This document shows positions 1,352 through 4,314 of a stretch of DNA of 5,568 nt, in pieces. The stretch comes from Candidatus Helarchaeota ASGARD archaeon Hel_GB_B. GTDB lineage: Archaea; Asgardarchaeota; Lokiarchaeia; Helarchaeales; HEL-GB-B. A program made the position numbers and the translations under genes. Under the pieces are notes generated by a model. It was not told the DNA's origin and did not search any database. It was given only the letters and a program-made list of their open reading frames with translations. How positions within the stretch are numbered: the stretch's first letter is position 1; each line of letters opens with the position of its first letter. The stretch lies in assembly GCA_005191425.1 (NCBI GenBank), contig SUPR01000168.1, positions 1 through 5,568 on the forward strand, in the 5' to 3' direction.

Positions 1352-1359
1352 TTATATAA
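1352..1359 (+). promoter_or_regulatory. Putative TATA box (TTATATAA) of the RNase III gene
   Basis: TATA-like octamer preceded by an A-run, about 30-37 nt upstream of ATG 1389. Weak evidence because the background is very AT-rich. Confidence 0.3.
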
Positions 1360-1388
1360 ATATGTATGTGGGGATATAATTAAATGAA

Positions 1389-2204
1389 ATGTTTAACTTT
1401 AAAAAAATGATATCAGATTCTTTAGAAAATAAAATTTTAAATTGGTTAAGGAGCAATGAAATAATAATCGAAGAAAATCAGTTAGATAACTTTATTGCTG
1501 CTTTTACTCATCCTTCATATACAAGTTTCGGGCTGGCATCAAATGCAAATGATTTTGAGCGTCTTGAATTTTTAGGTGATGCGGTATTGGGTTTAGCAAG
1601 TGCTCATATATTATTAACCCAACTGAGTGGCTCAGAGGGGGTATTGACCGAAGCAAGAAAAAAGTTGGTTAATAATAAAACATTATCAAAACTTTTTGAT
1701 AAATTAGAAATAATTGAATTGGTCCGAATAGTTAAAGATGGTGAATTATCCGCAAGAATTAAAGCAAGTTTTGTAGAAGCTTTTTTTGGAGCATTATTTT
1801 TAGAGTTTGGTTATGATAAAAGTAAAGAAATATGGGAAAAATTTAAAAAATATATTGAAAAAGACCAAAATATTCAATTAATTACATCCGATAGAGCAAA
1901 ATTAGATAGTGATAATTTAATTGATATTAACAAGGAGTTGGGAATTGGTATAAAAAATGCCAAATCAGTTTTACAGGAATATTGTCAAAAAAGAGGATTA
2001 GAAACTCCAAAATATGAAGTAATAAAAAAAGAAGGGCTAGAACATAGACCAATTTTTTATGTTAAAGTTTTATGCTCCAAATCTAAGAGTGACCCTTCAG
2101 AACAAGAAATTGCATATGGTAAAAGTTCCAAAAAAAAGACCGCTGAGATCAAAGCGGCTGAAGCTTTATGTGACAAACTTCAGTTAAAATATTATTCTGA
2201 TTGA
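1389..2204 (+). CDS. rnc: Ribonuclease III (class I: endonuclease domain plus C-terminal dsRBD), 271 aa; alternative start ATG 1407
   Basis: THPSY motif, signature ERLEFLGDAVL (E57, E60, D64), EGxLTxxR (E83), ASFVE130AFFGALFLE. dsRBD NAKSVLQEYCQKRGLETPKY...EGLEHRPIFYVKV...GKSSKKKTAEIKAAEAL. Confidence 0.95.
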   Translation: MFNFKKMISDSLENKILNWLRSNEIIIEENQLDNFIAAFTHPSYTSFGLASNANDFERLEFLGDAVLGLASAHILLTQLSGSEGVLTEARKKLVNNKTLSKLFDKLEIIELVRIVKDGELSARIKASFVEAFFGALFLEFGYDKSKEIWEKFKKYIEKDQNIQLITSDRAKLDSDNLIDINKELGIGIKNAKSVLQEYCQKRGLETPKYEVIKKEGLEHRPIFYVKVLCSKSKSDPSEQEIAYGKSSKKKTAEIKAAEALCDKLQLKYYSD

Positions 2205-2254: not shown

Positions 2255-3424
2255 ATGGTGAAATTTATTCATGTAAAAGGAAATTTTTATGAGATGGGAA
2301 TACAACAAGGTGAACAATTACCAATTAAAAAAGTAGTAAATAAAGTATTACATAGCGAAATTTTTCAAGAGGTAAAACCACGGTTTATTCCTACTTTTAT
2401 TATAAAGACGGTACTTGGTCTCTTAGCCAAATCAAATATTAAAAAAGCAATTAAAAAATATATTCCAAATCAGTTGGAAAGAATGAAAGGTATTGCAAAA
2501 GGGGCAAAAATTGGTATGAATTTACAATATGGACTACACTATATTGAGGTATTCACTGGTAATCCAAAATCCTCTTATTATATTCCTCCTACAGGTTGTA
2601 CAAAAATATTTGCAATACCTCCAGCTACGGCAGATGGGTCTATAATGTATGGACGCAATTATGATTTTCCCAATGTTCTCCAGCCATATCAAATGGTGCG
2701 GTTATCCGAGCCGGATGATAGATATAAGAATATTTGTATAACGCAATATCCTTTGGGTGGTACTCATATTGGTTTGAATAATAAAGGGTTAGCTGTAGGA
2801 ATAAATTATGCTAGGACTTGGGAAAAATATCCTGATGACTTTACGTTTAAGGGAATTCCTCCGACTCTTCTTGTTCAAGAAATGCTAGAAAATTGTAGTT
2901 CGGTTGACGAAGCAATAGAATTTATTACAAATTTTCCAGCTCGTTCTAATGCTCAACACTATGGAATGGCAGATAAATCTGGTAATGTTTGTGTAATAGA
3001 AACAACTCATAACGATTATTCCATTAGAAGGCCAGAAGATGGAATTTTAGCCCATACTAATACATTCCGTACTGAAAAATTTCTTGACCATAATGTTCCC
3101 GACAATCGTCATTGGAAGATGAAAAAAATGCGCCATATTCCATATATCAAATCTCCTAAGATGCGTTATGAAAGAGCTTATGAGTTATTATCTAAATTTA
3201 AAGGAAATATAACAATTGAAACTTTTAAAGAAATTTTGAGTGATCATTATTATCCCTCAAATTATAATGAAGATAACAAAGGTATACCTGATGATTTTAC
3301 TATTTGTAATCATGGTGAAACAGGAGTTACTCTTGCTTCAATAATAATAAGACCTAAAACTGGTCAATTTTTTGTTACAGATACGCAACCTTGTAAAACA
3401 AATTATGAAGAATTTAAAATTTAA
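2255..3424 (+). CDS. C45-family autoproteolytic Ntn acyltransferase/hydrolase (acyl-CoA:6-aminopenicillanic acid acyltransferase-like), 389 aa
   Basis: N-terminal GxxYEMGxQQG and ExMKGIAKGA alpha-subunit pattern. G114-C115-T autocleavage and nucleophile site (Cys codon 2597-2599) followed by TADG...GRNYDF, GLNNKGL, and HTNTF. Substrate unknown. Confidence 0.85.
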   Translation: MVKFIHVKGNFYEMGIQQGEQLPIKKVVNKVLHSEIFQEVKPRFIPTFIIKTVLGLLAKSNIKKAIKKYIPNQLERMKGIAKGAKIGMNLQYGLHYIEVFTGNPKSSYYIPPTGCTKIFAIPPATADGSIMYGRNYDFPNVLQPYQMVRLSEPDDRYKNICITQYPLGGTHIGLNNKGLAVGINYARTWEKYPDDFTFKGIPPTLLVQEMLENCSSVDEAIEFITNFPARSNAQHYGMADKSGNVCVIETTHNDYSIRRPEDGILAHTNTFRTEKFLDHNVPDNRHWKMKKMRHIPYIKSPKMRYERAYELLSKFKGNITIETFKEILSDHYYPSNYNEDNKGIPDDFTICNHGETGVTLASIIIRPKTGQFFVTDTQPCKTNYEEFKI

Positions 3425-3440
3425 AAAATAGAGATAAACA

Positions 3441-3446
3441 TTTTTT
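3441..3446 (+). terminator. Possible oligo-T terminator (T6) after the C45 gene
   Basis: T6 run 17 nt after stop 3424. Confidence 0.3.
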
Positions 3447-3470
3447 AAAAACATATAATAAAATTTTATT

Positions 3471-3478
3471 TTTATATA
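3471..3478 (+). promoter_or_regulatory. Putative TATA box TTTATATA of the SDR gene
   Basis: Exact match to the archaeal consensus TTTAWATA, 58 nt upstream of the TTG start, leaving room for an SD-containing leader. Confidence 0.45.
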
Positions 3479-3515
3479 AATTTAATAAAGATTGAACCTA
3501 AATTACTAAAAAAGT

Positions 3516-3520
3516 GAGGT
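3516..3520 (+). promoter_or_regulatory. Shine-Dalgarno GAGGT for the SDR gene
   Basis: GAGGT 8 nt before TTG 3529. Confidence 0.65.
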
Positions 3521-3528
3521 TAGTTTAA

Positions 3529-4314
3529 TTGTCAAATTTAGAAAAAAGATTATTGGGAAAAAATATACTAATAACAGGTGCAGGCGATGGTATTGGAAAA
3601 GCCATGGCACTTAGATTTGCCCGTGAAGGTGCTAATATTGCAGTAGTCGATATCAATCTTGAGAATGCGAATAAAACTGTCAATGAAATTTTAGAACTTG
3701 GTCAGAAATCAATAGCTATTAAGACAGATATCTCAAAAAGTGATGAAGTAAAAGAAATGGCTAAAAAGGTTTTTTCAAGTTTTGACCAAATAGACGTTTT
3801 AGTAAATAATGCAGGAATTGGCGCAAGTTATACCAGTATAATTCATACACCGGAAGAAACCTGGGACAGAATAATAAATGTAAATCTTAAAGGTAATTTT
3901 CTTGTATCAAAATATATCATAAGAAAAATGACAAAAAATAAAGCTCCAAAAGATAAATTAAAAGGTAAGGTAATAAACGTAGCTTCTATAGCAGGACGTA
4001 GAGGTAGAGCTGGATTGGGTGCATATAGTGCATCTAAATTTGGAGTAGTTAGTCTGACACAGACTTTAGCAAGAGAATTAGGTAGATATAGAATAACTGT
4101 TAATGCAATTTGTCCTGGATTGATTCATACAAAAATATATGGAAATATTTCAATAGAAGGACTTGCTGGTAGTAGTGATCCGGTTTCATTAATATATAAA
4201 CCTGTTGGTCTGCCTGAGGATGTGGCAAATGTAGCATTTTTCCTAGCCTCTTCAGATAGCGATTATATTAGTGGTCAATGTATTCCAGTTAGTGGTGGGA
4301 TGTATTTCATTTAA
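3529..4314 (+). CDS. Classical short-chain dehydrogenase/reductase (FabG-like fold, probably NAD(H)-preferring), 261 aa, TTG start
   Basis: T16GAGDGIG23 Rossmann motif, acidic D41 at the end of beta2 (NAD preference), NNAG 93-96, catalytic N119/S153/Y166xxxK170, NAICPG, C-terminal YISGQ. Confidence 0.95.
   Translation: MSNLEKRLLGKNILITGAGDGIGKAMALRFAREGANIAVVDINLENANKTVNEILELGQKSIAIKTDISKSDEVKEMAKKVFSSFDQIDVLVNNAGIGASYTSIIHTPEETWDRIINVNLKGNFLVSKYIIRKMTKNKAPKDKLKGKVINVASIAGRRGRAGLGAYSASKFGVVSLTQTLARELGRYRITVNAICPGLIHTKIYGNISIEGLAGSSDPVSLIYKPVGLPEDVANVAFFLASSDSDYISGQCIPVSGGMYFI

Follow-up and report, generated by a model that had tools for sequence, protein, structure and literature searches.

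We identified an rnc-like gene on the forward strand (1389–2204) of a 5,568-nucleotide window, analyzed over its full length, from the Asgard archaeon Candidatus (Ca.) Helarchaeota Hel_GB_B (GCA_005191425.1, contig SUPR01000168.1). We consider it probable, at roughly 70%, that its product is an active, stand-alone, accessory endonuclease for double-stranded RNA (dsRNA) that belongs to an Asgard clan of RNase III enzymes and, within that clan, to a Lokiarchaeial subclade. A preliminary description of this DNA had read the gene as a full RNase III with a dsRNA-binding domain (dsRBD), an L-V-N-N motif and an arginine (R123) four residues before the third catalytic acid, all of which was borne out by the open reading frame (ORF) list, Pfam and the translation. 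The ORF is intact (271 codons), and an alternative start at M7 (position 1407) gives the 265-aa form of the protein that is present in the protein collection. The RNase III catalytic domain spans residues 37–151 (1497–1841; PF00636 and PF14622 at 64.6 and 61.6 bits, cut-offs 35 and 27) and is followed by a linker of ~40 aa (1842–1958) and by a dsRBD of alpha-beta-beta-beta-alpha topology (residues 191–264; 1959–2180; PF00035). An AlphaFold2 model built with 54 aligned relatives (mean pLDDT 89.9) predicted an all-helical nuclease domain (pLDDT ~90–98), a poorly ordered linker with low confidence at residues 161–179, and a canonical dsRBD. TIGR02191-type Rnc has the same layout, one RNase III domain and then one dsRBD. 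Pfam revealed no tandem RNase III domains and no N-terminal, helicase or PAZ extension in the 271 aa, which hold one RNase III domain, and a search for fused or longer forms turned up solely eukaryotic Dicers and two 533-aa proteins.

All RNase IIIs have in common four catalytic acids (E1, D2, D3 and E4), of which D3 alone makes no direct contact with metal (Jin et al., 2022, PMC9291653). Rnt1p uses two additional side chains, N5 and K6, which are called ‘unique for eukaryotic RNase IIIs’ and assume the roles of the third Mg2+ of bacterial enzymes (PMC9291653), in agreement with the premise of the preliminary description that an extra Asn and an extra Lys are a eukaryotic hallmark. The predicted catalytic set of the query protein consists of E60, D64, S127 and E130 together with N96 and R123. 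The signature E57-R-L-E60-F-L-G-D64 (1557–1580) supplies E1 (E60) and D2 (D64), and E130 (1776–1778; E. coli E117) supplies E4. The four-acid set is incomplete, as serine (S127; 1767–1769) occupies the D3 position (E. coli D114), a point absent from the preliminary description. N96 (1674–1676), the second Asn of L-V-N-N in the stretch S82-EGVLTEARKKLVNN-K-T-L, is the equivalent of N5, and R123 (1755–1757), four residues before the third-acid position, is the positional equivalent of K6.

The preliminary description had placed both residues at eukaryote-type positions, and two alignments agreed on the placement. HMMER alignments to solved structures matched the L-V-N-N of the query with the LVNN in both Drosha RIIIb (‘eghltllrsslvnnrt’) and fly Dcr-2 RIIIb (‘pgaltdlrsalvnnttl’), and paired R123 with the Lys in the Drosha RIIIb string ‘rtKtlaD’. 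The N5 and K6 columns were the same in an E-INS-i alignment of 111 domains, in which all rows had Glu at E4. The Drosha RIIIb string given in the preliminary description was verified by the HMMER alignment, and the Dicer RIIIb string given there was correct in substance (‘SALVNN’ in animal Dicers). Since the N96, R123 and S127 codons were unchanged in contigs of other public hydrothermal-vent metagenomes (covering 1100–2016 and 1674–1827), these residues are not assembly errors.

The lack of Asn at N5 among near homologues speaks against a recent transfer from bacteria, according to which the gene would be an ordinary bacterial rnc with N96 and R123 present by chance or convergence. Among 122 near homologues from a 5.8-billion-protein collection (the few with an organism name are bacterial except for one Methanoperedens entry), the N5 column was never Asn (0/122) and the K6 column was Lys or Arg in only four (4/122), and the match of the query to the eukaryotic pattern exceeds chance. 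Eukaryotic RNase III domains carried Asn at N5 in 72/86 and 42/46 cases (two sets) and in 34/35 domains of our tree set, 31/35 of which had Lys or Arg at K6. The Lokiarchaeial subclade, comprising the query, eight Lokiarchaeial genomes and a Promethearchaeota protein (P0002), and with Ca. Lokiarchaeum ossiferum WP_371801685.1 among its members, had Asn at N5 in 16/16 and Lys or Arg at K6 in 16/16; D3 was Asp in only two of the 16, being mostly Asn, and Ser in the query.

Outside the subclade, all four named enzymes of Thorarchaeota, Heimdallarchaeota, Hodarchaeales and Hodarchaeota had N5, and three of the four had Lys or Arg at K6 (Gly in the Hodarchaeales enzyme); the Heimdallarchaeal enzyme had the full six-residue set. 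One Asgard family (f13; L015–L034; 27/31 genomes), an RNase III of ~245 aa within the Asgard clan, reads L-V-R-T-N, has Asp at D3 and is without N5 and K6, which were therefore lost or never gained there. Asn was also lost in some lineages nested in the subclade of the query, and because of these lineages and f13 the N5/K6 character is not fixed across the Asgard clan. A second feature was uniform: the G-x-G-E-x-x-S-G-G loop of bacterial enzymes was missing from all 40 Asgard rows, whose loop is about five residues shorter. From bacteria we collected 18 named genomes by a pattern that itself requires the basic residue, and Asn at N5 occurred in one of them (1/18), an ‘uncultured bacterium’ metagenome-assembled genome (MAG). 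The enzyme of this MAG (L046:6001-6540, CBFCWH010000001.1; 276 aa) has N5, K6 and D3, sits on a very long branch and groups with amoebozoan domains; it is either a rare bacterial enzyme whose site is of eukaryote type or the product of a gene that was mis-binned or transferred.

A search of 400 Asgard genomes with the query protein (E ≤ 1e-5) gave a match in 130, including 43 of the 90 high-quality ones. The best matches (44–46% identity) are in the family of Harpocratesius and Promethearchaeum, the Promethearchaeum copy (L039) coming from a MAG of Promethearchaeum sp.; the Lokiarchaeial relatives at 43–46% identity include both copies of Ca. Harpocratesius repetitus, an archaeon reported to be of the same class as the query host and of a different order. 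P0002 was 46% identical to the query, and the next matches listed were at ≤36%, those with an organism name being bacterial save for one Methanoperedens entry, which again argues against a recent bacterial source. A profile of the subclade had 25,939 matches among 1.84 billion representatives: the top ~40 were the subclade itself, then came other Asgard enzymes, then short proteins interspersed with numerous long proteins of eukaryotes (Drosha, and RNase IIIs of dictyostelids and other amoebozoans), and many eukaryotic proteins lay within the top 150. Against solved structures the same profile scored 119.6 bits for Drosha, 107.6 for plant DCL4, 98.4 for Campylobacter and 81.8 for Aquifex, totals that sum two domains, and Rnt1p scored low (35 bits).

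Neither raw similarity nor fold comparison decided between bacterial and eukaryotic affinity. Raw similarity does not separate the groups, single eukaryotic domains scoring 55–80 bits, which is the range of the best non-Asgard short proteins; the ranks of whole Drosha and Dicer proteins are partly those of two domains summed; and in Foldseek comparisons the best fold matches of the model, Aquifex and E. coli RNase III, lead simply via the common two-domain layout. The profile search also recovered a 2391-aa protein (P0204; JGI/Logan, 59.5-kb contig) that scores 206.8 bits and carries two or more RNase III domains of L-V-N-R type.

We then turned to phylogeny. An unrooted IQ-TREE analysis of 111 domains (126 columns, LG+C20+F+G4; a short alignment with an unconverged bootstrap) placed 39/39 Asgard rows, which come from several classes, in one clan (97/96*) with the query inside the Lokiarchaeial subclade (100/94*). 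In this tree 35/36 bacterial rows lay on one side of a branch (93/84), and the other side consisted of the Asgard and eukaryotic domains, the eukaryotic lineages forming a comb without resolved order. A FastTree analysis of 370 domains, made on an independent hidden Markov model alignment, likewise split Asgard and eukaryote-like sequences from bacteria (0.987, branch length 0.24), with a few Balneola-type and other sequences joining the Asgard–eukaryote side. When the L-V-N-N and K6-to-E4 columns were removed from the IQ-TREE alignment, three clans were obtained (Asgard, 80/96; bacteria and two eukaryotic rows, 71/90; eukaryotes, 90/68), and the subclade kept its support (99/95*).

As judged from these alignments, Asgard RNase IIIs form a clan of their own that is set apart from the sampled bacteria and lies on the same side as the eukaryotic domains, and the query does not nest in a bacterial clade in which L-V-N-N is common. 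Several observations do fit a bacterial transfer: archaeal RNase III is regarded as sporadic and horizontally acquired (PMC5303251; PMC3867540), the architecture and best fold matches of the query are those of bacterial class 1, the gene is patchy within its own order, and one Methanoperedens sequence (P0030) nests inside bacteria. Weighed against the Asgard clan, the residue counts and the identities given above, we find such a transfer very improbable. On the suggestion that the protein could be a prokaryotic relative of the eukaryotic lineage, the trees show a shared side of the split from bacteria. With the motif columns masked the tree becomes a three-clan star, which would fit an ancestral as well as a sister position of the Asgard clan relative to the eukaryotic enzymes.

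Tentatively, and at something short of even odds, the eukaryotic ‘upgrade’ of RNase III, in which an extra Asn and Lys replace the third metal, may have arisen in Asgard archaea before eukaryogenesis, with the query being a stand-alone, Argonaute-free descendant. An early capture of a eukaryotic RNase III domain by Asgard archaea would account for N5 and K6 without requiring the eukaryotic enzymes to have Asgard ancestry. It would agree with an Asgard clan that stands beside the eukaryotic comb, with eukaryotes not nested in Asgard near Heimdall/Hod, and with a ‘KDKAD..EAF’ motif nearly identical to that of Drosha RIIIb; yet the clan covers Loki-, Thor-, Heimdall- and Hodarchaeal genomes, closed ones included, its members have a simple one-domain architecture of ~230–270 aa, and no Asgard sequence falls inside a eukaryotic subgroup. 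We regard this capture as unlikely.

The Ser at D3 and the Arg at K6 both bear on whether the protein could cleave dsRNA. Serine at D3 leaves the query inside the RNase III superfamily, because 49/122 near homologues, and Drosha RIIIa as well, likewise have no Asp there. These same cases (Asn in Drosha RIIIa, ‘HAMANCFEAL’), together with the fact that D3 is not metal-binding (PMC9291653), make activity plausible without the D3 Asp, and on residue content the query is likely to be enzymatically active. A catalytically impaired protein, which through S127 and Arg for Lys would only bind or nick dsRNA or act as a regulator, would account for the replacement of a residue said to be conserved throughout the RNase IIIs (PMC9291653), for the query being the sole member of its subclade with Arg at 123 (the others have Lys), and for its fairly long terminal branch (0.87). 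However, the three metal-binding acids are intact, the 49 homologues with another residue at D3 are otherwise normal enzymes and Drosha RIIIa is active, Arg is found at K6 in 4/35 eukaryotic domains, and the ORF is intact with codons identical in independent samples; we consider impairment unlikely on this evidence. Going by its family, an active enzyme would form a homodimer with one catalytic valley, in which the pair of catalytic sites would use Mg2+ to cleave the two strands of dsRNA and leave 2-nucleotide 3′ overhangs. Each site would keep E60, D64 and E130, with Asn96 and Arg123 standing where Rnt1p, Drosha and Dicer have the N5 and K6 that they use instead of a third metal ion, and with Ser127 where the non-metal-binding third acid usually sits.

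The window is a whole contig of a 3.54-Mb genome in 182 contigs (93.7% complete, 4.9% contamination). The contig matches its genome in GC content (27.9% and 28.0%) and in tetranucleotide composition (r = 0.991; the median of 4–8 kb contigs is 0.990). Among the genes of the genome are one for a lokiactin-grade actin (446 bits) and one for an ESCRT-II subunit; the ESCRT-II family had no match in 14 control prokaryotes. Because of lokiactin, ESCRT-II, the bin-matching composition and an archaeal-type A24 neighbor in the window, the host is an Asgard archaeon, as the preliminary description had supposed it might be; it belongs to the class Lokiarchaeia, outside the Lokiarchaeales-type family, and comes from hydrothermal sediment.

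Within this lineage rnc is accessory and marks a break in synteny. The two genes downstream of it, a C45-family autoproteolytic acyltransferase/hydrolase and then an SDR (2255–4314, forward strand; Pfam), are kept as a pair in a genome of the same genus (G126) at 70–75% identity. Nucleotide similarity to this genome ends exactly at position 2249 of the window, the rnc/C45 boundary, and other genes lie upstream there; rnc was not found at the syntenic site, and a search of the G126 genome with the query protein was also empty. It is because the C45–SDR pair is kept, rnc is missing and the upstream genes differ that we call rnc accessory. The only other RNase III match in the order of the query (G128:C146:13516-14220; 31% identity) contains an in-frame TAA and is possibly a copy in decay.

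An association of RNase III with Argonaute (Ago) has been published for relatives of the query. One of the two rnc copies of Ca. Harpocratesius repetitus lies directly upstream of a gene for an 817-aa PAZ-PIWI protein, an rnc–hrAgo1 arrangement described by Bastiaanssen et al. (2024; PMC11217426; preprint 10.1101/2023.12.14.571608), and the preprint proposes that Dicer-like processing predates eukaryogenesis. A second subclade locus (L040:3439-7759, G133:C109) has three consecutive genes, for a full Rnc with all six residues of the site, for an Argonaute of 734 aa and for a 155-aa protein with an RNase III domain only and no dsRBD; a heterodimer or a two-nuclease arrangement around the Argonaute is possible in this trio. 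Other Asgard RNase III genes adjoin Piwi genes in three genomes (G185, G045 and G307).

The check for co-occurrence with Argonautes that the preliminary description had proposed thus has two outcomes, in that the nearest relatives include an Argonaute-linked rnc and the host genome is without Piwi: no Piwi-domain gene was found in the host genome, in the window or in the order of the host. Pfam likewise identified no helicase or Ago gene in the window, and we found no conserved gene neighbors of the subclade that are common to the window. Adjacency to an Argonaute does not define the subclade, because just 2/8 subclade loci with flanks are Ago-linked, and across the 400 Asgard genomes Piwi occurs in 30 versus 130 for RNase III. 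A Dicer-like generator of guides for an Argonaute in the host organism, as the two Ago-adjacent subclade loci, the three Piwi-adjacent genes and the published association might suggest, is therefore set against a host and an order without a detected Piwi domain, a window without helicase or Ago and the excess of RNase III over Piwi, and we think it most improbable. For the host organism, the small-RNA or dsRNA-defense role raised in the preliminary description is not supported, with no Piwi found in the 93.7%-complete genome or in the window.

The preferred reading, an active accessory dsRNA endonuclease of the Asgard clan, has points that weigh against it. With Arg123 and Ser127 the query is the most deviant member of its subclade, and reduced or altered activity is possible. 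Its match to TIGR02191, the NCBI equivalog for bacterial RNase III, reaches 129.5 bits where the cut-off is 166.25. Many of the ‘bacterial’ and some of the ‘eukaryotic’ rows of the trees are metagenome proteins classed by length, motif and clustering. The host genome is 93.7% complete, and an Argonaute could still lie on an unassembled piece. For the accessory dsRNA endonuclease that we favor, the likeliest job would be to cut dsRNA that is foreign, structured or formed by sense and antisense strands; making guides for an Argonaute and essential rRNA maturation are not the likeliest tasks, because neither the genome nor the window has an Argonaute and the gene is accessory.

The other genes of the window are an A24 peptidase, the C45 hydrolase, the SDR and an isopropylmalate-type synthase, none of them RNA-related. 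Upstream, on the reverse strand (197–1078), lies a gene for a 293-aa A24 prepilin/preflagellin peptidase-like membrane protein; its matches (31.8 bits for A24 and 30.6 bits for the archaeal type II C-terminal domain) are weak and just above cut-off, and the FlaK model is far below cut-off. The homologue of this membrane protein in the same genus has an in-frame TAA. On the two sides of the AT-rich intergenic stretch 1137–1209, a contig in each of three independent metagenomes matched 20 and 27 bases, with 183 other bases between them; such short flank matches may be due to chance or to another organism. Directly before rnc, an AT-rich stretch (1352–1381, forward strand) was read as containing two TATA-like boxes, TTATATAA at 1352–1359 and GATATAAT at 1373–1380, and either of them could direct a near-leaderless transcript starting from 1389 or 1407. 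Among the public runs listed as containing the sequence there was no RNA data set.

The literature already contains RNase III-dsRBD genes of Asgard archaea and their connection with Argonaute (PMC11217426), and NCBI annotates the Asgard relatives as ‘ribonuclease III family protein’. We found no earlier description of N5/K6 in Asgard RNase III beyond the papers on rnc–Ago synteny, in a literature search whose incomplete coverage makes this weak evidence of novelty. Apparently new, in that we did not find them in the searchable literature, are the occurrence of N5/K6 in a prokaryotic clan, the breadth of this clan across Asgard classes and its separation from bacterial enzymes. The query is one somewhat deviant member, and the interest lies mainly in what the clan implies. 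Much of the Asgard clan carries two residues that structural work has termed unique to eukaryotes, and it bears on how the RNA-silencing nucleases of eukaryotes originated. If the residues reflect shared ancestry, the nuclease half of RNA silencing would, like Argonaute, already have been present in the archaeal host lineage. A small single-domain enzyme of this kind would also offer a system for testing the eukaryote-type six-residue mechanism.

Among known systems, the HrAgo1-linked Rnc is of the same subclade (43–44% identity) and agrees with the query in length and domain order, and also in pattern, with L-V-N-N, a basic K6 residue and a non-Asp third position (Asn). It has Lys and Asn where the query has Arg and Ser, and an Argonaute gene follows it, unlike the query gene; the searched text of PMC11217426 held no discussion of active-site residues that we could find. 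Bacterial class-1 RNase III (E. coli Rnc, Aquifex aeolicus) shares with the query the combination of one RNase III domain and one dsRBD and the ERLEFLGD signature, but it is without N5/K6 and is described as using a third Mg2+ (PMC9291653). Many bacterial enzymes have the longer G-x-G-E-x-x-S-G-G loop before the last catalytic helix, whereas Asgard enzymes do not, and the ~40-aa linker of the query is longer than that of bacterial enzymes of 220–230 aa. Rnt1p, Drosha RIIIb and Dicer RIIIb have, as the query does, an Asn in V-x-N and, four positions ahead of the third acid, a basic residue, and the K-D-K-A-[DN]-x-x-E-A-[FL] of the subclade is almost the K-D-[KR]-A-D-L-[LV]-E-A-F of Drosha RIIIb. 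These eukaryotic enzymes differ in that the query lacks tandem RNase III domains, a helicase, a PAZ domain and an N-terminal extension, and the Asgard clan is separate from the eukaryotic groups in our trees. Drosha RIIIa offers a parallel at the third-acid position: it works in an intramolecular pseudo-dimer and has His, not Lys or Arg, at K6 in most sequences seen, but it combines Asn at N5 with Asn at the third-acid position in a domain that is known to cleave.

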